Shown: positions 5,011 through 30,357 of the stretch, piece by piece
Numbering within the stretch: position 1 is the stretch's first letter
How the letters are laid out: each line of letters starts with the position of its first letter
Virus record (IMG/VR): IMGVR_UViG_3300017700_000487
Span: 1-39,318 of that record
Strand: one strand, 5' to 3'
DNA length: 39,318 nucleotides
Origin: a virus
Lineage: Duplodnaviria > Caudoviricetes
Notes under the pieces: generated by a model
Told to the model about the DNA's origin: nothing
The model's input: the letters and a program-made list of their open reading frames with translations, nothing else
Database searches by the model: none
Position numbers and translations under genes: made by a program

Positions 5011-5087
5011 CGGCGCGTGTTCACGAACAGGCCGACAACGGCAAGCCAAAGCAGCCAGACGGCGAGAAGGCCAAGAGCGAGAATCAT
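5007..5087 (-). CDS. 26-aa single-TM membrane peptide
   Basis: Read by hand: MILALGLLAVWLLWLAVVGLFVNTRR; ATGA overlaps at both ends. Confidence 0.5.
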   Translation of the reverse strand: MILALGLLAVWLLWLAVVGLFVNTRR

Positions 5088-5548
5088 TGAGGCCACGCTT
5101 TCCCCTTCACGATCCTAGAGATGAGCGAGTGCGCCACTCCATACTGGCGAGCAATTGGCCTGTAGCCTACGCCAGACGAATAGATGCGCCGGATTTCCTG
5201 CACTTCTCTCTCGGAGAGCTTTGTGTTGGTTGGCTTGCGTCTGTCCGCACCTACGGGCGCGCGCCCTTTCCGATACATATCGACTATGTTGTCGCGATTG
5301 GTTCCAAGGAACAGATGGTTCGGATTTACACAAGCTGGCGTGTCGCACTTGTGGCAAACAAACAGCCCTCCCGGAATGGGGCCGTTTTCCATCTCCCATG
5401 CAACGCGATGCGTGGACCGCGCATATCCCTTGCGGATTGTAATCAGACCGTAGCCTTTATGGTTGGTCACTCCTCCCCACAAAAGACAGCCGGTATTCAG
5501 TTCCGGTTCGACTTTTTCTAAAAACCGATCCTCAAGAGGCCTAACCAT
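5084..5548 (-). CDS. HNH homing endonuclease with C-terminal HTH
   Basis: GCLLWGG...GYG...HRVAWE...VCHKCDTPACVNPNHLFLGTNRDNIVDM, then KLSEREVQEIRR...IARQYGVAHSLISRI. Confidence 0.9.
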   Translation of the reverse strand: MVRPLEDRFLEKVEPELNTGCLLWGGVTNHKGYGLITIRKGYARSTHRVAWEMENGPIPGGLFVCHKCDTPACVNPNHLFLGTNRDNIVDMYRKGRAPVGADRRKPTNTKLSEREVQEIRRIYSSGVGYRPIARQYGVAHSLISRIVKGKAWPQ

Positions 5549-6977
5549 TGAGACGTCTCCAAATGTCTGGAATCAATCCGCGTCCGTGCGTCCAAATCTT
5601 TATGCCTTGTTCTCGCAAGGCTAGATAGTTTTCCTGAAACTCCATAGCCTGCCGAGCCATCCAAGGCGCGCAAACGTATGTCTTGTCATCAAGGGCAATC
5701 GTCAGGGTCGAGTCCGTGTCGTTGAGGGCCTGCGAATATGCGTGGTGATTGCCGTCCTCATACGAGCTGTCAAAGCCGTACAGGTGGATTTTCTTGTATC
5801 CCGACAGCCACGCCAGATTGAGAGCGCGAAGGCCCACAGTCCCGCCGCCCGGCACGAATACCACCGGTTTCTGGTCCGGCCCTTCCTCAAACCACGGCTT
5901 TACGATGGAGAACAACTCTTCGCCGTCGTGCATCCCGTTATGCCAGACGACTACATCATGCCCCGAAAGCGCATCAAACACGCACGGATGAACCTGCGAG
6001 GCGAGGAAATAGCGGGTTTTCTTCGGCGCATCTTGCACAAACGCGGCGTTTTCTTCCCGCGCGTCCAGCATGACGTGAGAGTCAGGAGTAAGCCCCCGTT
6101 CCGTCAGGTAGGCCAGCGCATTGTTTACGGTGATGATCTTAGCGCCCCGCCGCCTATGATCCTTGATTGCCTGCACATGATCCTTCATCGACGGACCACC
6201 GCCCACGATGACGCAAGCCTTGTCCTGCTTGTCGAACCCGGAAAACCATTCCAGATCGCGCGTGACATTGGCTCTGATATTGTCATACGCATAATCAGCG
6301 GAGACGTTCATTCCGTCCATTTTGGGCGGGCAGGTGAAGCCTCCGACCTTCCAGACACCCGGAACCCACCCCTCAGTCACTTCATGGGGATTAGGCCTAC
6401 CGTGGAAGACGACCGCCTTGCAGCCCTCCGGAGGCCATGCGACCGCATCACGGTAGGACACGAACCAGTTAGCCGGGAACGTCTCCCATGCGCTGACTTG
6501 GCTAATCCATTCCTGATCGCCGCCGTTGATCTGGCCAGCCGGAAGAAGGCCCACAAGGCTCTCCGTGGGGCGGTCGATTACGGCAGTCGTGAACCGATCC
6601 CAAATGTCCCGATGGTCGCCATGCCGCCAGCGCATCACAGACGAGTTGTAGCAGGGCCAGTTCCAGTCTTTGATGATGCCGTGCGGAAGACCCTCAAGAC
6701 GGCCCGTCACGCATACGTCGAGGTCCATATAAAGAACCTCAGCGCCGGTTTTCCAAGGCATCGTATCGGCGTCGAATAGCTGGACCTTCGCCCACCAACC
6801 GGGCAACGACGGGTCCGCCAAGATCGGCTCTACACCCTCCGGCAGTTCGTCCGGCCTGTCCGTCAGACAATAGTGCGCTTGTTCTTCGCCTAGATGGCGC
6901 ACAATGCCATCATGAAGGCGGTGGACGTACTCAGGGCCGTATTTTGTGCCGACGCGGACGGAGACGACGTTAATCAT
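5541..6977 (-). CDS. Two-domain protein: N-terminal GT-A glycosyltransferase-like domain plus C-terminal DUF115/MptE/Maf-like domain
   Basis: N-terminal GTKYGPEYV...GWWAKVQLF...YMDLDVCV (DxD)...NSSVM...GDQEWI...VFHGRPNPH; C-terminal IVGGGPS...VNNA...GGGTVGLRALNLAWLSGYKKIHLYGFDSS. True start is ATG 6977 (MINVVSV), not 7211. Confidence 0.8.
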   Translation of the reverse strand: MINVVSVRVGTKYGPEYVHRLHDGIVRHLGEEQAHYCLTDRPDELPEGVEPILADPSLPGWWAKVQLFDADTMPWKTGAEVLYMDLDVCVTGRLEGLPHGIIKDWNWPCYNSSVMRWRHGDHRDIWDRFTTAVIDRPTESLVGLLPAGQINGGDQEWISQVSAWETFPANWFVSYRDAVAWPPEGCKAVVFHGRPNPHEVTEGWVPGVWKVGGFTCPPKMDGMNVSADYAYDNIRANVTRDLEWFSGFDKQDKACVIVGGGPSMKDHVQAIKDHRRRGAKIITVNNALAYLTERGLTPDSHVMLDAREENAAFVQDAPKKTRYFLASQVHPCVFDALSGHDVVVWHNGMHDGEELFSIVKPWFEEGPDQKPVVFVPGGGTVGLRALNLAWLSGYKKIHLYGFDSSYEDGNHHAYSQALNDTDSTLTIALDDKTYVCAPWMARQAMEFQENYLALREQGIKIWTHGRGLIPDIWRRLNG

Positions 6978-7474
6978 TTGTGTGCTTCCTCGCGACGCGG
7001 CTGGATTCCCCAAAGCTCTTTCTCTGCCTTCAGGCGAGCGGCTATGGCTTCTGCCTTGGTTTTGAACGAGCCAAGATACATCGGAACATTGTTCACGCCG
7101 ATAGTCGCTTCCCACCGCGTTTCGGTTCGCTTGTATATGCCAAGCGCACCGCTCTTGTTGTTGGCGTAGGGTCCAGCAATGTTCCGCTGATTTAGCGCGC
7201 GGTCTAGCCACCGAAGATTGGCGCGGCGGTTGTCCAGCGTGTCGCCGTTGATGTGGTCAACGTGGCGTTTTCCACCCGGCCCGTAAGCCCGCTCCGCGAT
7301 AGCCCGGTGCATATACTCGTGCGAGGAAGCCCCACGCGGCCCCCACTGACGAACCGCATAAGGCTTCGCGCTTGGGTGCGGCCCGATGTTCGCTCGCCAG
7401 CGCAGATCAGCCAAATCAGCGTCATCATCGTCAACGACGGCGACAAAGCCTCGGGATAACGGTATCTCTTTCAT
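6974..7474 (-). CDS. HNH-AP2 homing endonuclease
   Basis: MKEIPLSRGFVAVVDDDD...YMHRAI...VDHINGDTLDNRRANLR, then AP2-like WEATIGVNNVPMYLGSFKTKAEAIAAR. Confidence 0.9.
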   Translation of the reverse strand: MKEIPLSRGFVAVVDDDDADLADLRWRANIGPHPSAKPYAVRQWGPRGASSHEYMHRAIAERAYGPGGKRHVDHINGDTLDNRRANLRWLDRALNQRNIAGPYANNKSGALGIYKRTETRWEATIGVNNVPMYLGSFKTKAEAIAARLKAEKELWGIQPRREEAHK

Positions 7475-17878: not shown

Positions 17879-18384
17879 CAGGCCCTCCGCATCGTAAGGC
17901 CGACGCCGCCGTTCGACAGCGACAAGCCGGGAATGGTCTCGCCCGCTTCTAGCGCCGCCTTGATAGACGGTTCATGCTTAACCCGCTGGAACTTCACGCA
18001 ATGGTCGGGAAGGTCAGCCGCAGCCGGAATGTCCCCGACGATTTGAGGGCCTGTGTGACGCCATGAAATCGTTGCCTCTGGCAGCCGCAAAGACTTCTCC
18101 CCGACTTCCTGAAGGAATGCCGCCGCCGACTGGCGATAACGCTCCGCACGGCCCTCTAGCAACTTCTGACGGTCCCTGTAGTCAGACGCCAGCGCCTTGG
18201 CCGCAAGCGCGTTGGCCTCGCACTCAATGGCCAACCGGACAGCATAGCGGAGGCCCTGAATCGCATCCCCCTCGCCATCCACCGTGTCGATCAGGGCTTG
18301 ATCGTCATCCTCGCCAACGATAGCGCGGACAGACTGCCAAAGCGCCGCCGTCTCACGGCCTCGCGCCTCTAGGTCAGCACTCAT
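17878..18384 (-). CDS. Siphovirus Gp157-family protein
   Basis: IDTVDGEGD...coiled coil...IKAALEAGETIPGLSLSNG; start at ATG 18384. Confidence 0.8.
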   Translation of the reverse strand: MSADLEARGRETAALWQSVRAIVGEDDDQALIDTVDGEGDAIQGLRYAVRLAIECEANALAAKALASDYRDRQKLLEGRAERYRQSAAAFLQEVGEKSLRLPEATISWRHTGPQIVGDIPAAADLPDHCVKFQRVKHEPSIKAALEAGETIPGLSLSNGGVGLTMRRA

Positions 18385-18850
18385 AACTGAACGCCTGACG
18401 AATGAACGGTACATCGTCGTCCAGATCGAAACTGGCGCGGGAATCCGCCTTACCGGCAGGCCCGCTAAACTCATCATTGGTGCTCCCGCCGCCACTGGCA
18501 GGCTTGCCGCCAAGCAGCGTCAGCTCGCCCCGGAACTTGCCGATGTGGATTTCAGTCGCGTACTTCTCAACGCCGTTTTGCTCATACTTCCGCGTTTGGA
18601 GAGCGCCTTCGATGTAGAGTGTCGTTCCCTTTTTCACGTAGCTCTCGACCGTCTTGACGATGTTATCGTTGAAGATCGTGACGCGGTGCCATTCCGTCTT
18701 TTCCTTCTTCTCGCCGGTCGCCTTGTCGCGCCAGCTTTCCGACGTGGCCAGTGACAGGTTAGCGACACGCTCGCCGCTATTGAGCGTCCGAATCTCCGGG
18801 TCTTTGCCGACGTTGCCGACGAGGATAACTTTATTAACGCTTCCGGCCAT
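18374..18850 (-). CDS. ssb: Single-stranded DNA-binding protein
   Basis: MAGSVNKVILVGNVGKDPEIR...SLATSESWRDKATGEKKEKTEWHRV...LDDDVPF. Confidence 0.97.
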   Translation of the reverse strand: MAGSVNKVILVGNVGKDPEIRTLNSGERVANLSLATSESWRDKATGEKKEKTEWHRVTIFNDNIVKTVESYVKKGTTLYIEGALQTRKYEQNGVEKYATEIHIGKFRGELTLLGGKPASGGGSTNDEFSGPAGKADSRASFDLDDDVPFIRQAFSYEC

Positions 18851-18859
18851 GATGGCTCC

Positions 18860-19585
18860 TTAGTTGACGGGGGCTAGGTCGGTCAGACCCTTGTAAAGCT
18901 CTTCAAGTTCCACCAGCCGTTCAGGCATGGCGGTATCAAGTTGCGCGCATAGTTCGGAACCCTTGGCCCAAGCCTTCGCCAGATCGTCGGGTTTCGTTTT
19001 CCGCAGCACGTCCTCAAAGCGGTTGGCGCGGTCTGCAAGCGTCAGCGTTGTCTTTGGCGGTTCGGCTTGCTCAACGGAGACAGATACCGAAATCGCCGGA
19101 TGCGACGCGGGGACAGCCTTCGTCAACAAGGCTCGCAGTTTCTTACGGTCAGCCTCAGTGATTTGCTCGCGTTCGTCCAGATCGCACCAAGGCGAGGAAA
19201 CGGCATACAGGTAGCGGCCAATACCCCAACGAACCGCAGCGCGCTTGAAGGCATCACTGAGAGCGCCTTTCTCAGCTTCAATGTCGGAATCACCCGCCCC
19301 GTCCGCCTTCCAGACCCATTCGTCCCCGACCTTGACGCCAATGTCACAGACGGTCTTTCCTGCCGTGTGGCTATAGCGGTTCTGCCACCCGCCGGGGCCG
19401 CAAACGTCATCCAGACGGCCCATCACGTCGCGGGCGTCCAGATAGGCGAGGGCGATACCTTTAGTGGCCTTGGCGAAGTTGTCGCCGGTTTCCTTCTGGC
19501 GCTTTTTCTTGTTGCTGGTCCCCACTCGCCACGACACCGCATCAGGCGGGAACGGTGCGGCCAAGGCGTCAAAGTCGATTGTCAC
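18860..19585 (-). CDS. Rad52/Rad22-family (Sak-like) single-strand annealing protein
   Basis: LAAPFPPDAVSWRV...LAYLDARDVMGRLDDVCGPGGWQ...EAEKGALSDAFKRAAVRWGIGRYLY; GTG start 19585 with GGAG. Confidence 0.9.
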   Translation of the reverse strand: MTIDFDALAAPFPPDAVSWRVGTSNKKKRQKETGDNFAKATKGIALAYLDARDVMGRLDDVCGPGGWQNRYSHTAGKTVCDIGVKVGDEWVWKADGAGDSDIEAEKGALSDAFKRAAVRWGIGRYLYAVSSPWCDLDEREQITEADRKKLRALLTKAVPASHPAISVSVSVEQAEPPKTTLTLADRANRFEDVLRKTKPDDLAKAWAKGSELCAQLDTAMPERLVELEELYKGLTDLAPVN

Positions 19586-19806
19586 GCTTTCTCCATTTCG
19601 TGTTTCTCGTAAGCCTCTAGGGCCGACTGACAATCAGCCGCGTACTGTGCAGAGAGCGGAGCGGGCATACCCTCAACCTCTCTTGTTCTTTCTAGGAAAT
19701 GCTCCCGGAGGATGACGGCGCGAAACCGGGTTGTAGGTTCGTAAACGCCTGCGTCGTCTATCCAGAGCTGGCCGTCGCGGAAAATGACAAGGGGACGGCT
19801 GGTCAT
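19582..19806 (-). CDS. Hypothetical protein
   Basis: MTSRPLVIFRDGQLW...; coupled overlaps. Confidence 0.6.
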   Translation of the reverse strand: MTSRPLVIFRDGQLWIDDAGVYEPTTRFRAVILREHFLERTREVEGMPAPLSAQYAADCQSALEAYEKHEMEKA

Positions 19807-20033
19807 TGGGCTGGTCCGCATTGATGGACGCGGGGCCTTTTGGCCTCTATCACCCATGCATCCGCCTCTTCTTTGCTTTCAAAGCGGCGGTTTGGGATGT
19901 GGGCCGGGTGGATAACACACCTGTAATCCTTCACCGTAGTCCACCCGAAAAGCCCCTTGCGCTCAACAGACCACCAATCTCCACAATGAGGAGCTTGATT
20001 GAAGCAAACGCGATAGATCGGAACCTTCATCAT
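19803..20033 (-). CDS. Hypothetical protein
   Basis: 76 aa; coupled overlaps. Confidence 0.6.
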   Translation of the reverse strand: MMKVPIYRVCFNQAPHCGDWWSVERKGLFGWTTVKDYRCVIHPAHIPNRRFESKEEADAWVIEAKRPRVHQCGPAQ

Positions 20034-20227
20034 TTAGCCCCTTTGGATTGTTTGCGCTCGCAGTTACTCAGACGGATGACGGCCTGACGCAAACGATCAA
20101 GCTGGCCCGGTTCCAGATCGGTAAGTCTCTCGGTGTTACCTATTGCGACGGTAAGGGCGCTCATCGCCGTTTCGAAGTTCAGAGACTGGTTGCGCAGCCC
20201 GCGCATGGAGTCGATTACGTCGGTCAC
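20030..20227 (-). CDS. Hypothetical protein
   Basis: GTG start overlapping upstream stop; GGAG RBS. Confidence 0.55.
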   Translation of the reverse strand: MTDVIDSMRGLRNQSLNFETAMSALTVAIGNTERLTDLEPGQLDRLRQAVIRLSNCERKQSKGAK

Positions 20228-20400
20228 AGGTCGCGCTCCTTCCATGCGTCTTTGGCGCGGTCTGCCATATCGGCTAGGCGATCCGTCATGGCGTCGTAAG
20301 CGTTGGCCTCAGCCATTGCCTGCGCTTCGTCCTCTCCCATGCCTTGATCTTCGTAGAGGCCCTGAAGGCGCTCTAGCTCTTCGATGTAAAGCTCCTTCAT
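20224..20400 (-). CDS. Small acidic helical protein
   Basis: MKELYIEELERL...DRLADMADRAKD. Confidence 0.6.
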   Translation of the reverse strand: MKELYIEELERLQGLYEDQGMGEDEAQAMAEANAYDAMTDRLADMADRAKDAWKERDL

Positions 20401-20636
20401 CACACCGCTCCCGTAATCTGGCCTGCAAGGTGCAGCCAATCCGTCTTAACGGGCTTGGCGAGGGAGAGGGGTTCGTCGTCATCGTCGTCGCTAGGCTGGT
20501 TGCCGAGTTCGTCGGCGCAGTCCTCACAGACAAACAAGCGACCGTGAGCAAACAGGTCTTGCTCGTTGTCACGGACCGTTCGTCCGCAATGGTCGCACTC
20601 ACCAGAGTGAACTTCGGTCGGGTCGTTGTAGGTCAT
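20400..20636 (-). CDS. Small Zn-finger-like protein, first gene of leftward operon
   Basis: CDHC...CEDC; GGGAG RBS before ATG 20636. Confidence 0.65.
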   Translation of the reverse strand: MTYNDPTEVHSGECDHCGRTVRDNEQDLFAHGRLFVCEDCADELGNQPSDDDDDEPLSLAKPVKTDWLHLAGQITGAV

Positions 20637-20644
20637 GTGTCTGC

Positions 20645-20739
20645 TCCCTTGTTGACCCGATAGAACCACGGGAGCGGACATGGCGTCAAGCTGTTTTATT
20701 CGCTTGCGCGACCGGATTTGTTCGGTCTATGGTTACGTC
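20645..20739. promoter_or_regulatory. Divergent early promoter/operator region
   Basis: Rightward TTGCGC-N18-TATGGT ending 6 nt before ATG 20740, with GACCG-N8-CGGTC as the spacer; leftward TTGACG on the minus strand near 20690. Confidence 0.6.
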
Positions 20740-20967
20740 ATGCAAGAGACATTCGCCCAACTACTGCGCCGCCTTCGCAACCGCGAGGGCCTGTCGCTGT
20801 CCCAAGCTTCCCTCCAGACCGGGCTTGCCAAAGGCAACCTGTGCGACATGGAAAAGGGGAACCGGACCAACCCCACCGTCTCGACTATCGGGGCGCTGGC
20901 TACCGTTTACAACACGGCTCCGGCTACATTGCTGCGAGCCGCATTGAGGGGGGAAACCAATGCTTAA
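20740..20967 (+). CDS. XRE/Cro-like HTH regulator
   Basis: LRRLRNREGLSLSQASLQTGLAKGNLCDMEKGNRTNPTVSTIGALA. Confidence 0.9.
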   Translation: MQETFAQLLRRLRNREGLSLSQASLQTGLAKGNLCDMEKGNRTNPTVSTIGALATVYNTAPATLLRAALRGETNA

Positions 20968-21244
20968 CTGGTTCAAACGCCTTATGAAGCGATACAGCTT
21001 CAGCCTTGAACGCCGTGATGAATGGGCGGCCTACTTTCGTGCCAAGGACGACAGCCGGGCTGCGTGGATGCGCGAGCAAGCGGCCATCTCCAAGAACTGT
21101 CACCTTGCCCTGATCGTGCGGGAACGGAACGCACTCAAGGATGAGTTAGCAAAGGCTATCCGTCAGAAGAAAGCCCGCGCTCCGATCTATGCCAAGCTGC
21201 GCGCGCTCTCGATTGAGGAGCTTAACGTGGTGGCGGGTCGGTGA
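20960..21244 (+). CDS. Hypothetical protein
   Basis: 94 aa with RBS. Confidence 0.65.
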   Translation: MLNWFKRLMKRYSFSLERRDEWAAYFRAKDDSRAAWMREQAAISKNCHLALIVRERNALKDELAKAIRQKKARAPIYAKLRALSIEELNVVAGR

Positions 21245-21561
21245 AGGCCCCCAAGTTTCGCAACCGAAAGACTGAGTTTGATGGCCTGTCCTTTGATTCA
21301 GCGAAGGAGGCTCGGCGGTGGTCAGAGCTTTGTCTGCTACAGCGAGCGGGTCAGATTTCCGATCTTGCTCGTCAGGTGCGAATGCCGCTTGTCGTCAACG
21401 GACAACTCGTCTGCACCTTCATTCCTGATGCTACCTATGTCGAGAATGGGAAGCAAGTGATTGAGGACACGAAAAGCCCGATCACCCGCAAGCACCCCGT
21501 TTACCGCATTAAGGTCAAACTGCTGAAGGCGCTGACCGGCGCGGAGGTTCGGGAGACGTGA
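21241..21561 (+). CDS. DUF1064-family PD-(D/E)xK nuclease-like protein
   Basis: KFRNRKTEFDGLSFDSAKEARRW...FIPDATY...IEDTKS...YRIKVKLL. Confidence 0.85.
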   Translation: MKAPKFRNRKTEFDGLSFDSAKEARRWSELCLLQRAGQISDLARQVRMPLVVNGQLVCTFIPDATYVENGKQVIEDTKSPITRKHPVYRIKVKLLKALTGAEVRET

Positions 21562-21929
21562 GAAAATCCTTCAGCGCAAAGGACCGCGCTCGCATCTTCG
21601 CGGCCCACGGCGGCGTCTGTGGCCTGTCTGGCGTCAAGATCAAGCCGGGCGAAGCATGGCACATAGAACACCGCGTACCCGTCGCTCTAGGCGGCTCTAA
21701 CGATGATGAGAACCTTTACCCGGCTCTTGTTAAACCTCACGCCTTGAAGACGAAAGACGACGTTAAGCGCATCGCCAAGGCCAAGCGTCAGAGCGGCATT
21801 GAGGGCGGTCAGGCAGCGCGGAGAGCCAAGCGAGGCTTTGGCCTTATCCAGTCTCGAAACGAATGGCCCAAAGGGGTCAAGATTCAATCACGTGGTTTCC
21901 AGCGGAAGCCCAAGGGGAGAGAGACATGA
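21558..21929 (+). CDS. HNH endonuclease
   Basis: WHIEHRVPVALGGSNDDENL...H..KT..D. Confidence 0.85.
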   Translation: MRKSFSAKDRARIFAAHGGVCGLSGVKIKPGEAWHIEHRVPVALGGSNDDENLYPALVKPHALKTKDDVKRIAKAKRQSGIEGGQAARRAKRGFGLIQSRNEWPKGVKIQSRGFQRKPKGRET

Positions 21930-22834
21930 AACACCGAAACCCGCAGTTTATTCAGATGAAGAAGGCTGGCAAATCTCACGAAGAGATCGGAGCCGCTTTC
22001 GGAGTACGACCGCGCACCGTTGATTGGTGGGTTACGTCTGCCATCAAAGAGGGCCTGTTAGTCCCCACAAAAGGCCGCGCCCCGACCCCCTCCGCCGTTA
22101 TTGAGCGCCTGCGAGAAATTTGGTTGTCGGGCCTTCACATTGACGATGTGATGAAACAGGTTGGCATGAGCCGTTTTGCCATCCGTGGCCTGCTTAACCG
22201 TAACAACATTGTGCGCGAACTCCCGCCTGTTCGGAAAAAGCGTGAGAACGATCCGGCTTGGCTTCCCGCCATTGAGCAGATGAAGAAGGACGGCAAGACA
22301 GACAAACAGATTGCCGAAAAGCTCGGTATTAACGAGGCTCGGGTCGCGCGGATCAGAAAACAATCGGGCGTTACTGCGCTGGCCCCCAAGCCCGCCTCTC
22401 CTTGGACGCCAGAGAATGAGGCTACGCTGAAGCGTCTATGGTTTACGGGCGCGTCCTGTCACTTGATCGGGCAGCAAATGGGCGGGCGTTCATCCTCTCA
22501 AATCCTCTCCAAAGGGAGCCGGATGGGGCTTCCAAACCGTGGTTTCCCCTTGCGCCGGAAGGTTGCTGATCGGGATTACGAGTCTGTTAGGCTTGCCGCT
22601 ATGGCCCGCAAGGGGACAACGCTTGGCCCGAAGGCCCGGCCCGGCCCGAAGGAGGAACCGACTATCATCCCCGGTTTTGCCCGTCCGTGGCTTACTAGGG
22701 CGCTTGGCGAGTGCAGCTATCCTTACGGCGAGCGCCACAATATCCATTACTGCTGCAAACCCGTTTTCGGGGTTAGCCAATGGTGCGAATCCCATCACGC
22801 TCTTTGCACGGTAGAACGGAAGGTTTCGGCATGA
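21926..22834 (+). CDS. GcrA-like regulator with extra N-terminal HTH repeats
   Basis: C-terminal half WTPENEATLKRLWFTGAS..IGQQMGGRSSSQILSKGSRMGL...ECSYPYGE...YCCKPV...WCESHHALC resembles GcrA; three preceding HTH-like units. Confidence 0.75.
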   Translation: MKHRNPQFIQMKKAGKSHEEIGAAFGVRPRTVDWWVTSAIKEGLLVPTKGRAPTPSAVIERLREIWLSGLHIDDVMKQVGMSRFAIRGLLNRNNIVRELPPVRKKRENDPAWLPAIEQMKKDGKTDKQIAEKLGINEARVARIRKQSGVTALAPKPASPWTPENEATLKRLWFTGASCHLIGQQMGGRSSSQILSKGSRMGLPNRGFPLRRKVADRDYESVRLAAMARKGTTLGPKARPGPKEEPTIIPGFARPWLTRALGECSYPYGERHNIHYCCKPVFGVSQWCESHHALCTVERKVSA

Positions 22835-23013
22835 CCAAAGCAGTCAAAGGCCCCGGAATGTGGACAGACGAAGAGGATAAGAAGCTACGCCGCTGCGTCG
22901 CTTGTGGCTACTCCGCTCCGGAGGTTGCGGTCAGATTGAACCGGCTAGAGCGTTCGGTCGTAACCCGTGCCGTTGTCCTAAAAACACCGTTCCCGGTGGT
23001 GGCTGGTGGATAA
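22831..23013 (+). CDS. Small Myb/GcrA-N-like HTH protein
   Basis: WTDEEDKKLRRCVACGYSAPEVAVRLNRLERSV. Confidence 0.65.
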   Translation: MTKAVKGPGMWTDEEDKKLRRCVACGYSAPEVAVRLNRLERSVVTRAVVLKTPFPVVAGG

Positions 23014-23176
23014 GGACGTGCTGATTACCAAAATGGTCTCTACGGGCGCATCCAGATCAGAGATTCAGGAACGCACCGGCTTGAGCAAGTCCGGTGTTCG
23101 CAAAGCCCTCTTCCGTCTCGGTCTGGTCGCTGCGTATGGCGGCAACGGGCCTAAGCCTAGGCGGGTGACGGCATGA
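23006..23176 (+). CDS. Small HTH protein (56 aa)
   Basis: Read by hand: (M)DKDVLITKMVSTGASRSEIQERTGLSKSGVRKALFRLGL...; fills the gap with overlaps at both ends. Confidence 0.6.
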   Translation: MDKDVLITKMVSTGASRSEIQERTGLSKSGVRKALFRLGLVAAYGGNGPKPRRVTA

Positions 23177-23523
23177 ACGCGCTAGAACGCCTTGGGCTTC
23201 TGTGTGCCGCTGAGAGGCTTCTAGGCCATAGAGGGTGCGGAGCGGTTCTGTTTGCCTTGATCGAGGCCAACGGAAAGCCCGTCAGTCACCTTCAGTCGGC
23301 TAAGACTGTCTCACGTCGCCAGCCAAAGACCGATTACGGTGACAGCGCTGCACAAGCCCGAAGAGCTAAAGACACCTTCCGCACCCGCATTTGCTGGACG
23401 CGCGAGGCTTTGCGTGATGTTGGGCTAGACACGTCGATTGAGACTGTCGCAGGTCAGGGCTATGCGCTTCCTGCTGACGCCAGATCGAAAGTGATTGATC
23501 GTCTGATAGCGGAAGCAGGATAG
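23173..23523 (+). CDS. Stand-alone OmpR/CtrA-type winged-helix domain protein
   Basis: RTRICWTREALRDVGLDTSIETVAGQGYAL resembles the Trans_reg_C recognition helix and wing; no receiver domain. Confidence 0.7.
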   Translation: MNALERLGLLCAAERLLGHRGCGAVLFALIEANGKPVSHLQSAKTVSRRQPKTDYGDSAAQARRAKDTFRTRICWTREALRDVGLDTSIETVAGQGYALPADARSKVIDRLIAEAG

Positions 23524-23560
23524 AAAAAGGCCCGGTGGGAACGAGTCAACCACCGGGCCT
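23524..23560 (-). terminator. 11-bp hairpin with T-tract on the minus strand
   Basis: AGGCCCGGTGG-N11-CCACCGGGCCT, preceded by AAAAA on the plus strand. Confidence 0.55.
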
Positions 23561-23767
23561 ACGTCTTACGCGGCGAGTACAAGAGGGAGCAAATCCCCGC
23601 CGCGCCTCCCCTGTTCCCCGCCTTGACCTTTTGGGTCCGGTGGCGGATAACATTCGGTGCGGATCAGGGCTGAGTCTGAACCGCAGAACGCCAACGGCTT
23701 ACACGGAGCCATCGACTATGCGGTTTTACCGCCACCAGACAGATCGCGCAAGCCTCCGGTGTATTCC

Positions 23768-24580
23768 GTGAGCGCGCCGTTTATGCAGCTCTATGTCGCT
23801 GACTACCTTGGCGACACGCGACACCTGACAACCGAGCAGCACGGGGCGTATTTGCTCCTCCTCATGACCATGTGGCGGTCTGAAGGTGTCTTGCCCGACA
23901 ACCCCGTCAAACTGGCCAGAATCGCGGGTGTCACGCCGTCTCGCTGGTCGAAAATCTGCGCCGAGGTTTTGGAGTTTTTCACGCCGTGCGAAGGCGGATT
24001 TACACAGAAAAGGCTCTCCGCTGAACTCTCAATTGCTGAAGAAAAATCGCAAAAAAGATCGCAGTCAGGAAAAGCAGGCGCGCGAGCTAAGGCGTTGAAA
24101 TCTAACAAACTGGCGTCAGCAAATGCTTCACGATTGCTTAAGCATTCTCCAGAACCAGAACCAGAGTTAAAGAAAGAGAAGGTTTCACCTTCTCCAAAGA
24201 AAGGCTCTCGACTGCATCCGGATTGGAAGCCAACGGAAGCCGACCTGACATTCGCCGCCAGCCAACACATGACCCCCGAGGAGACAAGACGTGAAGCCGA
24301 TCAATTCCGTGATTTCTGGATTAGTAAGCCGGGCGCAGGCGGATGCAAACTCGACTGGCCTGCAACATGGCGGACGTGGTGTCGCAACCGTCGCGGCGCT
24401 GGCCAAGCTGGAAAGCCAAACGCCGGAGGACACAGACCGAAACCTGCTTCAATGGTTGACATCATCCTTGGGGATCGTGCCGCAGCCGCAAATCAGCCTG
24501 ACCTATCCGGTGACGGGTGGCTACCAACGGACAGTGACGGGGTTTACGTTCGAGGGCCTGACACCGGACAACCGTTCTGA
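23768..24580 (+). CDS. DUF1376/YdaU-family replication initiator
   Basis: PFMQLYVADYLGDTRHLTTEQHGAYLLLLMTMW; PEPEPE linker; C-terminal RLHPDWKP...FRDFW...KLDWPATWRTW. Confidence 0.85.
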   Translation: MSAPFMQLYVADYLGDTRHLTTEQHGAYLLLLMTMWRSEGVLPDNPVKLARIAGVTPSRWSKICAEVLEFFTPCEGGFTQKRLSAELSIAEEKSQKRSQSGKAGARAKALKSNKLASANASRLLKHSPEPEPELKKEKVSPSPKKGSRLHPDWKPTEADLTFAASQHMTPEETRREADQFRDFWISKPGAGGCKLDWPATWRTWCRNRRGAGQAGKPNAGGHRPKPASMVDIILGDRAAAANQPDLSGDGWLPTDSDGVYVRGPDTGQPF

Positions 24581-24881
24581 AGCTCTACGGGCCGTCCAGA
24601 GCGCCATGACGCCGCCAAGCGTCCAGCGATGCGAGGAACACGTCTCGACGCTCCACGCGGTCACAGCTCACCGTCAGGATAGCGAGAACAGTCTTAGGCT
24701 TATCCTGCGGCTCTACAGCGATTGTCTGGCCAAGTATCCGGCTGACGTGGCTAAGGCGGTGGTTGAGCGGTTCATGTACCGACCCGAAAAGCCCAACTTT
24801 TTCCCGACGCTCTCCGAACTGAAAGAGGCTTGCGACCGGGCAGCAGCACAACGAGAGCAGCTTCTAAGGAGCCTACAATGA
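24291..24881 (+). CDS. Putative helicase loader-type replication protein; start uncertain, probably downstream of 24291
   Basis: YSDCLAKYPADVAKAVVERF...FFPTLSELKEAC; follows the initiator. Confidence 0.55.
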   Translation: MKPINSVISGLVSRAQADANSTGLQHGGRGVATVAALAKLESQTPEDTDRNLLQWLTSSLGIVPQPQISLTYPVTGGYQRTVTGFTFEGLTPDNRSEALRAVQSAMTPPSVQRCEEHVSTLHAVTAHRQDSENSLRLILRLYSDCLAKYPADVAKAVVERFMYRPEKPNFFPTLSELKEACDRAAAQREQLLRSLQ

Positions 24882-25248: not shown

Positions 25249-25426
25249 CCACCGCTGCGAAAGGTGTAGGTTGACCACATGAACAAGCGCCCGCCAATCA
25301 TCGCCGTGCGGCCCCGCAAAGGGTCTGTTTTGGAGGCCCAACAAAAGGCCCTCAACAACGACATGGCAGACACTATTCACCAATGGGCTGAAGCCTTCTC
25401 TATGGAGAAGGAAGGGGAGAAGAACG

Positions 25427-25618
25427 ATGCGACCGAATAGCTTTAAGACGGGACAGACCGTCAAACACATCCAGACAGACGGAAGCCTCAGAGACGAAAA
25501 GCTGACCGTCATCGGCGTTCACAAGCACGCTGTCTGGTGCCGCAAAGACTACGCGTGGGAAGGCGTCGCGCCGAGTTTCGTGACGTATGGCGCAAATGAG
25601 TTGGAGTCGGTTCGATGA
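25427..25618 (+). CDS. Small SH3-like hypothetical protein
   Basis: FKTGQTVKH...LTVIGV...VWC...ELE. Confidence 0.55.
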   Translation: MRPNSFKTGQTVKHIQTDGSLRDEKLTVIGVHKHAVWCRKDYAWEGVAPSFVTYGANELESVR

Positions 25619-25815
25619 ACGACACCCATACCCACCGAGACCATCGCCGTGAAGCCGCTATGGCGACAGACCAAGGCTCTTCGCGCGGGTGGAACTTCGA
25701 CGCCGCCGTGGACGATGGCCCGATCTGGCTTCGCGCCCTTTCCGAATGCTTCCGTATCCGCAGTCTGGTTATCTTTGCGGTTATGGGTGCGGTTCTGGCG
25801 TTGTGGTGGTTGTGA
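25615..25815 (+). CDS. Small membrane protein
   Basis: Hydrophobic C-terminus; coupled overlaps. Confidence 0.55.
   Translation: MNDTHTHRDHRREAAMATDQGSSRGWNFDAAVDDGPIWLRALSECFRIRSLVIFAVMGAVLALWWL
25626..25641 (-). repeat. Cassette motif copy 1 (partial, no clear hairpin)
   Basis: CCATACCCACCGAGAC, exact reverse complement of 26013-26028. Confidence 0.8.
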
Positions 25816-25991
25816 TGGGCTGGGATATTCTTGCTACGGCGCTCCCGGCCTTTATCGTCGGTCACGCTGCGATCATGATGAGTTGGCTCGATGAGCCCCG
25901 CAAACGCCTTTGGACCGTTCTGACGGTGCTAGGCTATGGCTCTAGCGCTGCCTGTCTGGTTGTCGGCGCGCTGTGGGTGATTTGGTCATGA
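25815..25991 (+). CDS. Two-TM small membrane protein
   Basis: MGWDILATALPAFIVG...LWTVLTVLGYGSSAACLVVGALWVIWS. Confidence 0.55.
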   Translation: MGWDILATALPAFIVGHAAIMMSWLDEPRKRLWTVLTVLGYGSSAACLVVGALWVIWS

Positions 25992-26016
25992 CTACCACAG
26001 AACGAAGCCACAGTCT

Positions 26017-26053
26017 CGGTGGGTATGGAGCCGCAAAGCGGCGGAATGAACAA
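26017..26053 (+). repeat. Cassette motif copy 2
   Basis: CGGTGGGTAT-GGA-GCCGC AAA GCGGC-GGA-ATGAACAA. Confidence 0.85.
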
Positions 26054-26071
26054 TCAAAATGGACCCGACCA

Positions 26072-26506
26072 ATGACTGACAGCCTGATAGCCCGTCTTGA
26101 AGCTGCGGAGGTGGGGAGCCGGGAGTTGGATGCGCTGATCACCGCCCATTTCGTCGGCGCTGAACTTCGGCCTTATCCGCCAGCAACCGACTTTGGACCG
26201 TCCGCCAAGTGGCAGTTCTGGTCCGCTGACGGAAAGCACTTCCTCGGCAACGAGTCCAAGTTCCCGGTCCCGCCCGTCACCACCTCCCTAGACGCTGCTC
26301 TTGCTCTGGCGGAGCGGGTGCTGCCGGGGTGGTACGTCGGCGTTCAGGCCAATCGGTACGAACTGCTCATCGCGCCGGAAGACTGGTCCGCCTACCTCTC
26401 TGCGCCAAAGGGCCACCAGTTCACGGACGAGGTCGAGGCGTCCGCCCCAACCCCCGCGCTCGCTCTCTGCATCGCCATCTTGAAAGCCAAGGAAGCATCT
26501 CAATGA
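26072..26506 (+). CDS. Phage accessory protein
   Basis: LIARLEAAEVGSRELDALI...TTSLDAALALAERVLPGW...APTPALALCIAILKA. Confidence 0.7.
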   Translation: MTDSLIARLEAAEVGSRELDALITAHFVGAELRPYPPATDFGPSAKWQFWSADGKHFLGNESKFPVPPVTTSLDAALALAERVLPGWYVGVQANRYELLIAPEDWSAYLSAPKGHQFTDEVEASAPTPALALCIAILKAKEASQ

Positions 26507-26952
26507 CTGCATTAACGGAAGACTTGGGTGCATCGCTTCGCGATACCCAGCCAGTAGCGGAAACGCCGGTTGTGTCAGGTCATACGCCGGGGCCGTGGGT
26601 GGCGTGTGGATCTAAGAGGGGCGGATGCTCCTGCGGTCAAGTTTGGAGCACGGCGGTCGATATGCCCGTCGCCACGGCCAACGGGATTTGGGGCGACGAC
26701 CTTGCCCATCCCTACGGAGAAATCCCGGCTGCGCACAAACTCGCCAACTCCCGCTTGATCGCCGCCGCTCCTGACCTTCTCGCCGCCCTAAAGCCGTTCG
26801 CCGAAGCAGCAGCCGCCCGTGACGGGATGGGCGAGTGGGAAATAACAACGACTGTCGTCGGCTACCTCCGCGCCGCCGCCGCTGCCTACGCCAAGGCTAC
26901 CACAGTCGCCGAAGCGGTCTCGGTGGGTATGAGCGAAGGGGCTGACCAATGA
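26503..26952 (+). CDS. Phage accessory protein (HTPGPW...NSRLIAAAPDLLAAL type)
   Basis: Recognisable motifs; both termini are encoded by motif copies. Confidence 0.7.
   Translation: MTALTEDLGASLRDTQPVAETPVVSGHTPGPWVACGSKRGGCSCGQVWSTAVDMPVATANGIWGDDLAHPYGEIPAAHKLANSRLIAAAPDLLAALKPFAEAAAARDGMGEWEITTTVVGYLRAAAAAYAKATTVAEAVSVGMSEGADQ
26527..26552 (-). repeat. Cassette motif copy 3
   Basis: Minus strand GGCTGGGTAT-CGC GAA GCG-ATGCACC. Confidence 0.85.
26921..26948 (+). repeat. Cassette motif copy 4 (3' half diverged)
   Basis: CGGTGGGTAT-GA-GCGAAG, then GGGCTGACC. Confidence 0.75.
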
Positions 26953-27224
26953 CTGTCGAAATCACCGTGGATCGGGACGGCTTGACCAACGGCCTACAAC
27001 TCAGCATCGGCGACAGCAGCGGCGGCTTCCGACTTTCTGGCCCGAAGTTCAACGGTAGCAGCAAGACGCTCCTGCGCTTCCCACTCACCAACGCCCGCGA
27101 TCTGGACGAGATCGAGGCCTACTGTCGAAAAGCGAGAACAGCCCTGAAAGCATCCGCGGTGGGTACGGACGGGCGCGAAGCGTCCGGTAGTGAAACCAAA
27201 TCCCTTCCTACAGGTGACGCATGA
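26949..27224 (+). CDS. Hypothetical protein
   Basis: GLQLSIGDSSGGFRLSGPKFNGSS; coupled overlaps. Confidence 0.65.
   Translation: MTVEITVDRDGLTNGLQLSIGDSSGGFRLSGPKFNGSSKTLLRFPLTNARDLDEIEAYCRKARTALKASAVGTDGREASGSETKSLPTGDA
27157..27197 (+). repeat. Cassette motif copy 5
   Basis: CGGTGGGTAC-GGA-CGGGCGC GAA GCGTCCG-GTA-GTGAAACC. Confidence 0.85.
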
Positions 27225-28111
27225 GCGGGGTAGAGGGGTGGATTGAATGGCATGGGGGAGAGAACCCGGTGCCGTGCCCGATTGTGGAGACGCGCCGTCG
27301 CGATGGCCTGTTTAGCGAAAGCTGCGCCAGCGATCTGATCTTCTGGGACCATCAAGGGCGGGGCTCCGACATCATCGCCTACCGCGTCGTCACGCCTGCC
27401 CCATCCGCACTACAGCCTTCGGCTTCCGTCCCTGCCGAGCAAGCGGATGGGGGTGGGCCTGCGGATGTCAGCGCGACCCCGCTAGGGTGGGTCAAGCGAA
27501 TAAATGAAGATCATCCCATCGGCCTCATGCAGCCCTCGGATTGGCGGTTTTCCCCGCACAAGCCAACGCTGGAAGAAGGCTTGAAGGCGGAATGGTTCGA
27601 CGTTCTTCCGGTGTACGCCACCCCTCCCGCCACCCCCATAGCCGAGGGTTTTGGTTCATCTTCGCCCAAGAGCGAAGATACCCACCGTGCAGCTGAGACG
27701 GCTGTTCCGTTCGACTGGACAGATCAGGAGCTGATCGACCTGATCGGCGACGCCATCAGCGACAGTATGGATATGGATTGGACCTCCACGGACGGAGCGA
27801 AAGCCGCGTTGGCGGCGCTCCAGAAAGAAGGCCTGCTCCGCACCGACGTTCCGCCGCTGCCGGTCACCTCTGACAGATGGGCTGACCTTGAGCGGCTGGC
27901 GAAGACCGCGATTCAGGCTCGAACGGCGCTCGACAGCCAAGACGCCAAGGATGACCTTCACGACGCCATTGGCCCACACAAGGTTCTGGAACTGATCACC
28001 GCTGCCAGACGTGCTGGGGAGCCGGGAGCCATCTCTTCCGCCGAACTGATCGCCCGGACTGACTACGCCAAGGACGCGATTGATGATCGTGGCGGAGGTC
28101 GGGGCGCATGA
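27221..28111 (+). CDS. Mosaic accessory protein
   Basis: N-terminal WIEWHGGENPV...DIIAYRVV module followed by other modules separated by hairpin-encoded linkers. Confidence 0.65.
   Translation: MSGVEGWIEWHGGENPVPCPIVETRRRDGLFSESCASDLIFWDHQGRGSDIIAYRVVTPAPSALQPSASVPAEQADGGGPADVSATPLGWVKRINEDHPIGLMQPSDWRFSPHKPTLEEGLKAEWFDVLPVYATPPATPIAEGFGSSSPKSEDTHRAAETAVPFDWTDQELIDLIGDAISDSMDMDWTSTDGAKAALAALQKEGLLRTDVPPLPVTSDRWADLERLAKTAIQARTALDSQDAKDDLHDAIGPHKVLELITAARRAGEPGAISSAELIARTDYAKDAIDDRGGGRGA
27653..27687 (-). repeat. Cassette motif copy 6
   Basis: Minus strand CGGTGGGTAT-CTTCGC TCTTGG GCGAAG-ATGAACC(AAAA). Confidence 0.85.
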
Positions 28112-28350
28112 GCAAGCGCATGGACTACGGTAAGCCGGGCGATCCCTCGGGCTGCTACTTCCCGAGAGAGTGGCGGTCACCGTGCCGCTCCTGTCGGGGG
28201 CTTGGCTACTTGCCCGCGACTTACTCTCGCGGGGCCATCCCGTGCGGCTGTGATGAGCCGTCCGAGGATGACGACAAACAGCCGGGTACGCCGGAAGGCG
28301 TGACCCCTAAAAACCCCGTACCGCAACCCAATAGGGAGCCGAACCCATGA
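28108..28350 (+). CDS. Small Cys-rich protein
   Basis: CRSCRGLG...CGC; C-terminus encoded by motif copy 7. Confidence 0.6.
   Translation: MSKRMDYGKPGDPSGCYFPREWRSPCRSCRGLGYLPATYSRGAIPCGCDEPSEDDDKQPGTPEGVTPKNPVPQPNREPNP
28281..28306 (+). repeat. Cassette motif copy 7
   Basis: GCCGGGTAC-GCC GGAA GGC-GTGACCC(CTAAAAA). Confidence 0.75.
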
Positions 28351-28592
28351 CCCGTTGTTCTTGGCTGGGCCTCGCCGCCCTTCTGCTCACGTCCGCTTGC
28401 GCTGATCCGTCGCCACCCTCGCCCGAGCGAGAGACGATGCTGAAAAGCCTCGATCCCGTCCGCGTCTGCCCGAACGGCGTCCAGCTATTTGTGGTGGACG
28501 GGCGTGTCGCCACCCTCACGGAGGACCACCTGAGTCAACGGCGCGTCAGCCTTTATTTCGCTGAAGGCGTAACGCCACAGGAGGCGTGCTGA
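28347..28592 (+). CDS. Putative lipoprotein
   Basis: Signal peptide with lipobox-like LTSAC. Confidence 0.65.
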   Translation: MTRCSWLGLAALLLTSACADPSPPSPERETMLKSLDPVRVCPNGVQLFVVDGRVATLTEDHLSQRRVSLYFAEGVTPQEAC

Positions 28593-29197
28593 TGACCGAA
28601 CAACAAACACCGGCAAGCGTTGTGGAGAGGCTGTCCCTGATCGTGAGCGAGCTTCGGGGCTTGCCTCATGTGGTCGAGACGTGCCGCGAAGCCGCCGCCC
28701 TGATCGAACGCCTCTCAGCGGAACGGGAGGGGCTGCGGGAGGCGTTGGAGAAGGTCCGCAATACCACGCACCAATCGACAGGCTATTCGGACCTGTCCGC
28801 CAGGCGCGCGGCGTTCGGTGTTTCCGAAGCCGCCCTCACTCAGGGAGAGAGCCGACAGTCGGGGTGGCAGGACATTGCGACGGCCCCGAAGGATGGGACG
28901 GTCATCGACTTGTGGATGACGGACGAAACGGGGGCGGAGTGGCGTGAATCAGACGCCTACTACGTCACCGATTGTACTGACGACACCATAGTCTACCAGC
29001 CAGACGGCTCTTGGACGACGCCGTGTAGAAAGCGCGACGGATGGTTTGCGCCCGGCCATGACTACGATGGTCACGGCTTTTGCGATGTGCCCAAGCATTT
29101 CAACCCGCATCCGCGCCAGCAAAAGGTGTTTTTCACGCTGCCGACCCACTGGATGCCCCTCCCTGCCGCCCCTACTCCTGCTGGTGGAGGGGAGTGA
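28592..29197 (+). CDS. DUF551-like accessory protein
   Basis: WQDIATAPKDGTVIDLW...PTHWMPLPAAP. Confidence 0.75.
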   Translation: MTEQQTPASVVERLSLIVSELRGLPHVVETCREAAALIERLSAEREGLREALEKVRNTTHQSTGYSDLSARRAAFGVSEAALTQGESRQSGWQDIATAPKDGTVIDLWMTDETGAEWRESDAYYVTDCTDDTIVYQPDGSWTTPCRKRDGWFAPGHDYDGHGFCDVPKHFNPHPRQQKVFFTLPTHWMPLPAAPTPAGGGE

Positions 29198-29766
29198 TGG
29201 CGCATTCCGCTTCGCTCCATACCCAGCCGGGCACCGCAAAGACCGTCGCTGACCTTCAGCCTTGGGCGCTAAAGGGCGACCGATACAGCCCCAACCTCGC
29301 GCGTTGGACAAAAAAGAACTGCCAACACTGGAAGCCCGAGGTGTTTCATAGCGCGGACGGAACTCTGTGGGTCGGCTACATTGACGAAGGTCGGTTCTTC
29401 ATCGGTTCCAGAATGGCGCGAGTCCTGACCTTTGGCGGGCGGGCAGAGATGGGGTGCTGGACGTTCCCCGTCAGCGACCTGACGCTGCTCACGTCGTTTT
29501 GGAGCGACTACGCCAGCCGGGGCCGCTGCGCCATCGACACAGACCATTCGCGCGGCTTCATCGGGGGCGAAACCCGATGGACGGAAAACGGCGACGCGCG
29601 CTCCTGCAACTGGTGCGGCTCTCACACGCAGACGCGCCGTCGCTGGACAGAGCGTGTGAAGCGCGAGCGATGGGAAGCTACCACCCCTGCCGAAACTGTC
29701 GCGGTGGGTACGGAGACGCAAAGCGTCGGAGTGCACCAAAACTCCAGCGAAGGAGTGAAACAATGA
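29197..29766 (+). CDS. Hypothetical protein; both termini encoded by motif copies
   Basis: ATG 29197 with GGAG RBS; FWSDYASRGRCAIDTDH...CNWCG. Confidence 0.7.
   Translation: MAHSASLHTQPGTAKTVADLQPWALKGDRYSPNLARWTKKNCQHWKPEVFHSADGTLWVGYIDEGRFFIGSRMARVLTFGGRAEMGCWTFPVSDLTLLTSFWSDYASRGRCAIDTDHSRGFIGGETRWTENGDARSCNWCGSHTQTRRRWTERVKRERWEATTPAETVAVGTETQSVGVHQNSSEGVKQ
29199..29228 (-). repeat. Cassette motif copy 8
   Basis: Minus strand GGCTGGGTAT-GGA-GC GAA GC-GGA-ATGCGCC. Confidence 0.85.
29702..29737 (+). repeat. Cassette motif copy 9
   Basis: CGGTGGGTAC-GGA-GACGC AAA GCGTC-GGA-GTGCACC(AAAA). Confidence 0.85.
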
Positions 29767-29975
29767 CCCGCGATGAACTGTCTGAACGTGGCCCGTCCCC
29801 GAAAAGCGCTCCCGCCCCTGACGGGATGCTCCGGGAGGCGATTGCGTACGTTATTCGGACGCGCACTCAGGTCGGCGGGACCGATTGGAACCGGCTCACT
29901 CTGGCAGGCGACCTAAACGACGAAGAACTAGCCGACGCCATTCTCGCCCTCATAGGGAAGGAACAAGGCCGGTGA
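29763..29975 (+). CDS. Hypothetical protein
   Basis: AGGAG RBS; LREAIA...LADAILAL. Confidence 0.6.
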   Translation: MTRDELSERGPSPKSAPAPDGMLREAIAYVIRTRTQVGGTDWNRLTLAGDLNDEELADAILALIGKEQGR

Positions 29976-30055
29976 CCGAACTTTACCTATTCCTGTTCTT
30001 CATTGCCGTGGCCGTCGCGTGTCAGGTTTGGCTGGCTACACACCGGAAACACTAA
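29972..30055 (+). CDS. 27-aa membrane peptide ending the rightward operon
   Basis: Read by hand: (M)TELYLFLFFIAVAVACQVWLATHRKH; GTGA overlap. Confidence 0.45.
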   Translation: MTELYLFLFFIAVAVACQVWLATHRKH

Positions 30056-30357
30056 AACAGTCCGAGGAAGCGTCTCCGCGTGAGTCGTTGGTTCTCAACC
30101 CCTACCGCATCGCAAATCTCAATCACGGTGTTAGCGCGGTTGTTGGCCTTGTCCGTGTCCGCATGGCGAGCGTCGGCAACCGTCACCCACCCGCCAATAA
30201 GGTTCTCTTCGGGAGGAGGCGTTACCGGAACGTCAGCGCGGAGGGACGGGCCGATCAGCTTGGAGCAATCCAGCGCACTTTGGATGGTCGTTCCGCACCC
30301 GGCGACAGTAAGCAACCCAACCCCTACGGCCAGCTTCGCCAGCATCTTGATCCGCAT
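30052..30357 (-). CDS. Putative o-spanin lipoprotein (Rz1-like)
   Basis: MRIKMLAKLAVGVGLLTVAG-C lipobox; Pro-rich; overlaps the Rz-like gene. Confidence 0.7.
   Translation of the reverse strand: MRIKMLAKLAVGVGLLTVAGCGTTIQSALDCSKLIGPSLRADVPVTPPPEENLIGGWVTVADARHADTDKANNRANTVIEICDAVGVENQRLTRRRFLGLF

Follow-up and report, generated by a model that had tools for sequence, protein, structure and literature searches.

Integron cassettes carry one attC site each and are arranged in arrays of direct orientation. Excerpts of published accounts describe further systems in which repeats or hairpins accompany DNA exchange. In P2-like phages, inverted repeats flank the swappable fun gene, which is exchanged site-specifically (PMC8987985), and T4-type phages carry a repeated stem-loop motif (PeSL) in hyperplastic regions where modules are shuffled (PMC2839356). 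TnpA-REP cuts both 5′ and 3′ of a hairpin, and on one strand only (PMC8266576). Rad52-like recombinases build mosaics from divergent homology in temperate phages (PMC3945230), and mini-hairpins with GNA or GNNA loops are far stabler in DNA than in RNA, bind single-strand binding protein (SSB) poorly and resist 3′ exonucleases (PMC13037366). The window analysed here is the whole 39,318-base virus record IMGVR_UViG_3300017700_000487, in which a family of short structured motifs very probably forms the ends of exchangeable gene cassettes. Each site has a conserved base and a variable stem-loop, one site lies on each strand, and cargo, hairpin and outer flank re-assort at two boxes.

The window encodes terminase, portal, major head and lysis genes, and the motifs are set in a series of short, overlapping accessory genes that comes after the replication genes. 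A sequence-only reading had placed nine motifs in this run and had seen no convincing copy elsewhere. All nine left boxes are present at the positions and on the strands it named, within 25628-29711; the window holds 10 against 1.67 expected, the tenth (37147) lacking a hairpin. The full pattern matches six times against 0.77 expected, a number that 0 of 100 shuffles reaches. A complete site is built of GGTAY, a variable stem-loop and RTG(A/C)ACC. A heuristic scanner, rather than a covariance model, was used to find sites (284 hits against 1 in reversed sequence at a threshold of 2.5), and it recognizes seven complete sites, at 26017+, 26552-, 27157+, 27687-, 28280+, 29228- and 29702+, with zero elsewhere in the window. 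The confinement of the motif to this run thus stands, while only seven of the nine copies are complete, the copy at 26921(+) being truncated and that at 25626(-) a half-site.

The same reading had grouped the motifs into four units, each running from a minus-strand to a plus-strand site, and three of these have two recognizable ends. The half-site at 25626..25642 (-) is a doubtful cassette end: it consists of a left box inside a conserved small gene (a 16-nt perfect inverted match to 26013-26028 and 26916-26931), and because it has neither hairpin nor right box and four homologous genes are collinear straight through it, the left end of unit 1 is unsupported. A complete site with GGA pads and a 5-bp stem follows at 26017..26052 (+). 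Unit 2 carries the cargo gene 26503..26952 (+; phrog_1273), whose N-terminal peptide is encoded by the complete site at its left end, 26527..26552 (-), and its right end, 26897..26938 (+), combines an inner box at -24 with the truncated site, which is cut off beyond the first arm of the hairpin. Contigs assembled from one public run, which may be the source sample, are identical to 25394-27237, 27209-28733 and 28829-30120, and in a contig of that run 26930 is connected to 27210 by a complete hairpin with its right box; a co-occurring relative therefore has an intact site at the 26921 position and lacks the gene at 26949-27224. An inner box and complete site lie at the C-terminus of that gene, at 27133..27196 (+), within the stretch 26930-27210 that is absent in the relative. 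Unit 3 begins in the middle of a chimeric open reading frame (ORF), 27221-28111, at the complete site 27653..27687 (-), and finishes inside the next ORF at a complete but weaker site, 28280..28306 (+). Unit 4 extends from the complete site 29199..29228 (-) to an inner box and complete site at 29678..29737 (+), which encode the N- and C-terminal peptides, respectively, of its cargo gene, 29197..29766 (+). The proposal that the motifs of two units supply the first and last residues of a single gene holds for units 2 and 4.

Pattern scans of viral and metagenome contigs yielded about 195 distinct copies and 63 locus clusters with a strong site, almost all of them viral, although a small number of these clusters might be chance matches or parts of a single contig. 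L149 was treated as the window itself and left out, G541 is not used for any claim, and the host gene matches L315-L317 and the tandem repeat L095 were left out of the counts of base invariance, half-hairpins, outward units, copies and hairpins, and orientation. When matches were defined by the two boxes only, 100 of 199 form a hairpin between them, whereas shuffles average 11. The Y-R pair that closes the stem covaries in 93 of the 100 folding matches as against 57 of the 99 without a hairpin. Sites are 26-40 nt long, and the 195 copies carry 128 different hairpins. The 68 distinct loops comprise 22 of GNA and 12 of GNNA type (34/68 together), 18 that are pyrimidine-rich and 16 others; G...A pads stand beside the stem in 95 of 166 copies, among which several non-Watson-Crick base positions are 95-100% invariant. 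In 55 of 155 copies (0-4 in controls) there is a weaker inner box as well, usually located 23-24 or 15 bases to the 5′ side of the site, and it sometimes overlaps the cargo's own terminal codons. In phage records read whole, sites are mostly clustered within a few kilobases, and the phages that bear them differ in their packaging and replication modules.

The motif matches no described element among those tested. Zero Rfam families matched in the window, matches of the region or sites to cultured phages and plasmids were short coding or chance matches, a search for related loci with the unit 4 protein gave no match, and the description of the motif was not found in the literature searched, a coverage outside which most subscription papers fall. 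A hairpin of the same inner build (GTAT, GGA pads, GNA loop and ATGC) but with other outer boxes occurs in the Microviridae-like contigs L325, L326, L328, L331, L333 and L334; at L326:3446-3465 it is intergenic and on the strand opposite to the genes. Such a position between genes, together with the mini-hairpins at the G4 origin and in ssiA in the excerpted source (PMC13037366), would suit single-strand priming signals of the ssi/G4-origin type, with an inward-facing pair priming the copying of both module strands and so promoting spread. This is quite improbable, as no primase is common to the phages and priming alone would give neither crossovers at both boxes nor swaps of the hairpin by itself.

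The orientation of the sites is non-random in other genomes, as the sequence-only reading required. Genes in the other loci were called with a simple codon model rather than a standard gene finder, and 167 copies have a clear coding strand, 93 of them near one gene end only, 72 near neither and 2 near both. A consistent rule applies to 81 of the 93, with reverse sites near starts (42) and forward sites near stops (39), and 12 are opposite. Neighbouring sites alternate in 96 of 115 pairs. Inward-facing pairs (n=57) have a median spacing of 378 bp, none being less than 200 bp apart and 36 falling within 200-480, and outward-facing pairs (n=39) are more broadly spaced (median 571). With reverse sites at the starts and forward sites at the stops of inward pairs, the hairpin-forming strand lies at both 3′ ends of each module. 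The outward-facing pair was rejected as the inserted unit, with its broader spacings and only two candidate empty sites, which are related and each pieced together from two phages. The placement of sites within 90 nt of starts and stops might instead reflect action in mRNA, by translational coupling or as RNase III stems across gene junctions; a stem closed by an outward pair could enclose a ribosome-binding site, and both strands fold under RNA parameters. That reading is nevertheless the least probable of those considered, since both orientations occur within one transcription unit, the G-A pads and GNA loops are found on one strand only, and the sites show no Rfam match and no promoter or terminator (by a sigma-70 consensus that may miss alphaproteobacterial promoters). 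The junctions outside the sites (27197-27230 and 29150-29198 in the window, and many other loci) are themselves conserved as modules of 35-60 bases; these often include C-rich sequence, which might base-pair with the ribosome-binding site.

Exchange becomes apparent when copies are grouped by the 45 bases outside the site, which gives 27 outer families, including a host-gene family (12) that was left out. Sequence 30-130 bases inside the site is unrelated in 25 of the 26 families, the inner flank of one member being very short. Of 164 approaches of homology to a site in 30 accessory regions, 0 cross it, compared with 918 of 3045 intragenic controls and 30 of 805 gene-junction controls, the windows of which overlap. 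Outer family 3, to which the 27653 site belongs, comprises four phages with four cargos and four hairpins, and the unit 2 slot holds three cargos and three hairpins in the window, L179 and L164. The cargo family of unit 2 sits with its ends in a different slot in L169. The left end of unit 4 belongs to outer family 2; three homologues of the unit 4 protein have site-derived termini and four do not, one of the latter from Novosphingobium, and L217 and L324 share the cargo at DNA level while their ends differ, the joint falling at almost the same codon. More generally, 22 of 54 units have homologues in the locus set, and 15 of these 22 have a site-free homologue; the 106 homologue hits divide into 52 with no site, 44 with one and 10 with both.

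The hairpin itself is uncoupled from both flanks, since it is shared in only 33 of 104 pairs that share an outer flank and in 8 of 34 that share an inner flank, and since three of the six pairs alike in both flanks differ only between the boxes, once inside about 300 bases of about 95% identity. The motifs might also serve as passive linkers of homology, among many short conserved joints of a very mosaic region that relaxed homologous recombination uses, the hairpin being incidental. Other short conserved joints and gene junctions do break homology, and Rad52-like recombinases are known to assemble mosaics from divergent sequence, at least in the excerpted source (PMC3945230). Linkage of this kind would leave unexplained the covarying stems in 128 variants, the strand rule in 81 of 93 copies and the alternation of 96 of 115 pairs, and is improbable.

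Several observations weigh against a dedicated cassette system. The motif copies are related, so that the counts above are not of independent events, and no guide-target covariation was found beyond the stem. Cargos with a site at one end are common, making up 44 of the 106 homologue hits. The sites show no enrichment of alignment ends (42, with 45 expected); the ends are enriched 2.7-3.8 fold 31-60 nt beyond them, at the junction. Site-free gene junctions are barriers as well, 30 of 805 being crossed. Breakpoints are therefore not confined to sites, and the region is a mosaic at many short joints, of which the sites form one class rather than the sole one. The expectation that synteny breakpoints fall at the motifs is thus upheld in that gene content changes there, and fails in that other junctions break too. 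Empty sites were absent among the gaps listed, the shortest gap being 122 nt and slots being refilled with two, one or no sites; target duplications were likewise not seen among the gaps and joints listed, nor were circles or inversions among the contig joints listed from one public run. As none of these signs was seen, replacement of the units looks likelier than their excision and insertion.

No catalyst was found in the records and genomes searched. No shared protein family occurs in more than 13 of 19 phage records. Y1 transposases are found in 0 of 37 phage records and in 2 of 61 Brevundimonas genomes, with no site beside either; Y2 transposases are present in 19 of 151 Caulobacteraceae genomes, and the site occurs in none of 30 host Y2 loci and in none of 32 host Y1/Y2 transposase loci overall. 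Tyrosine integrases are encoded in 8 of 22 records, and none of the 9 neighbouring integrases is integron-type (at most 37.6 bits on TIGR02249, for which the cut-off is 265). The co-occurring HUH or tyrosine recombinase that the sequence-only reading had proposed to look for did not emerge: these records and loci gave no shared recombinase. At L332:2028-3209, a motif array contains a TnpB/IS605 OrfB gene with a site on either side of it.

Exchange might also proceed with no dedicated enzyme at all. Stable mini-hairpins, which in the excerpted source resist 3′ exonucleases and bind SSB poorly (PMC13037366), would stop 3′ exonucleases or polymerase, and the 3′ ends left at the boxes on both strands of a module would anneal to another copy with the help of Sak, Erf or RecT, so replacing the cargo. 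Annealing would account for the inverted layout, for replacement without empty sites and for the lack of a shared enzyme; Rad52, ERF or RecT genes are present in 13 of 22 records, the window also has a Rad52-type gene, and truncated half-hairpins joined to unrelated DNA do exist. However, 18 of 68 loops are pyrimidine-rich rather than of GNA type, the invariant mismatched bases suggest a protein reader, and exact hairpin-only swaps require two crossovers within 7-10 nt. Moreover, in a search that did not include Sak4, 9 of 22 records have no Rad52, ERF or RecT, among them the complete record G003 with 7 sites. Annealing by itself is the main rival explanation, a possible but rather unlikely one. 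Half-hairpins joined to unrelated DNA were observed at L225:4068-5070 (two near-duplicate copies), L340 and L186.

The explanation favoured here, held tentatively and at a little less than an even chance, is that the motifs are inward-facing ends of non-autonomous cassettes that are replaced between phages, with an enzyme supplied in trans acting on folded single-stranded DNA; for the dedicated enzyme taken alone, the case is about evenly balanced. The site would fold when the DNA is single-stranded, during replication or recombination, and the trans-acting enzyme would break strands to either side of the hairpin and join them again. By analogy, the chemistry may be a nick-and-join reaction like that of REP/IS200-type HUH transposases, and completion by replication or by phage annealing proteins would leave the cargo replaced and fitted with new in-frame N- and C-terminal peptides. 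Crossovers at both boxes, strand specificity, invariant unpaired bases and the TnpA-REP precedent favour nick-and-join by a protein that reads the folded strand; the direction of transfer, the folding and the catalysis are inferred. The cassette-end proposal of the sequence-only reading is in part sustained, in that the motifs border gene-content changes between relatives, and in part not, as neither signs of excision or insertion nor a catalyst were found.

With regard to the host, a strict pattern matched only one Brevundimonas and one Phenylobacterium genome among 185,579, and a hairpin copy in G346 brings the number of Caulobacteraceae genomes to three, for which reason the host of the window phage is probably a member of this family. 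The window encodes a Rad52/Sak-type single-strand annealing protein, a possible helper (18860..19633, -; PF04098, E 2.7e-18; phrog_1097), SSB (18374..18850, -; phrog_44) and a GcrA-like regulator. PHROGs profiles assign no integrase to the window, and 14 of 22 related records lack one too. A lambdoid-like divergent early region with a helix-turn-helix regulator and the GcrA-like gene occupies 20400-24881 of this integrase-free record. Two small genes, 20030-20245 (-) and 20400-20681 (-), occur in phage types that are not otherwise related (11 of 19 records for the first and 9 for the second), and the first had no family match and no usable protein-atlas match. Three HNH endonuclease genes (5084-5548, 6974-7474 and 21558-21929) are present, and a glycosyltransferase (5541-7211) and an acetyltransferase (790-1278) stand among the structural genes. 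Between the units, the accessory gene 26072..26506 (+), which is site-wrapped in other phages, is a look-alike of phage ABA-sandwich clusters; PF18066 is found on 13-16% of cluster members, a lead only. Among the genes within or adjacent to arrays at other loci are ones with DpdA-like, Lar-like, dATP/dGTP pyrophosphohydrolase and Nmad5 domains (L260:6839-7642, L186:7241-7996, L194:7664-8725 and L001:4404-4982), hinting at anti-restriction and DNA-modification cargo.

How phages trade tiny accessory genes and protein domains at exact borders has long been asked, and the usual answer is relaxed or illegitimate recombination. The borders described here carry a defined, covarying and strand-specific signal that is common to unrelated phage types and so makes the question directly testable. 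The signal may lead to a new recombinase acting on single-stranded DNA, or else reveal mini-hairpins in a new role. That it represents a new recombination class, in which an enzyme reads hairpins, captures 200-480-bp pieces of foreign phage genes between two inverted sites and fuses them in frame, is conceivable though doubtful; if true, this class would be an integrase-free domain-shuffling system shared across unrelated Caulobacteraceae phage lineages.

The view that the motif corresponds to neither attC nor REP is confirmed, the defining tests having failed for both, as they did for IS91 ends, PeSL and Chi. Like REP/REPIN elements, as excerpted (PMC8266576), the phage sites have a strand-specific hairpin, occur in inverted pairs and may be cut on both sides. 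A GTGG or GTAG word 5′ of the hairpin is common but variable here, and five further bases separate it from the variable stem. Unlike REP/REPIN elements, they are not high-copy or intergenic in hosts, have no Y1 transposase nearby, carry a second conserved box after the hairpin, and in phages bracket 200-480 bp of coding cargo. REP/REPIN/RAYT was rejected accordingly: the motif is rare on host chromosomes (5 of 81 genus genomes matched, against 10 control matches, and 5 of 401 family genomes), and a Y1 transposase is absent from the 37 phage records and has no site beside it in the 2 of 61 hosts that carry one. The sites resemble integron attC, as excerpted (PMC8946536), in an imperfect single-strand hairpin whose tip varies and in which some bases stay unpaired, predicted here from covariation, and in bordering gene-sized cassettes whose integrase may be absent nearby. 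They differ in having two inverted sites per module, a length of 26-40 nt and strong sequence conservation, with no integron integrase and no excision seen; the alternation of sites and the low integrase scores led to rejection of an attC cassette array. As with PeSL, a repeated stem-loop stands at points of module shuffling, whereas the phage sites alternate in orientation and lie in coding sequence, unlike the promoter-terminator units that the PeSL excerpt describes. PeSL was rejected because the promoter-like sites number 0, by a sigma-70 consensus that may miss alphaproteobacterial promoters, and the 3 terminator-like ones, against 6.6 expected, all lie away from the motifs. IS91/ISCR ends were rejected on the 30 site-free Y2 loci; likenesses to relaxase nick sites, ISCR origins and XerC arms are leads, of which the IS91-type one is negative by this test. 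An AddAB Chi site was rejected because the phage octamer has 38-86 copies per genome, fewer than its reversed control (134-246), and the comparison word, the Caulobacter Chi (PMC5443536), has 276-388 in the same 5 genomes.

Rad52-like relaxed recombination resembles the present case in the replacement of modules between short homologous borders, and the window encodes a protein of this type; unlike exchange at the phage sites, it needs no conserved structure or orientation as far as the excerpted account goes. The P2 fun repeats, on the excerpted description, are alike in forming inverted borders around variable accessory cargo in phages. The present sites depart from them in occurring up to nine times per phage in many slots, in lying within reading frames and supplying protein termini, in carrying a variable covarying hairpin at each site, and in being nearly absent from host chromosomes, a distinction drawn from the description of the fun repeats rather than from their sequence. 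By analogy, the system may best be regarded as a set of inverted-repeat-bounded phage cassettes akin to the P2 fun borders, and the odds that it is a new system of recombination are fair.

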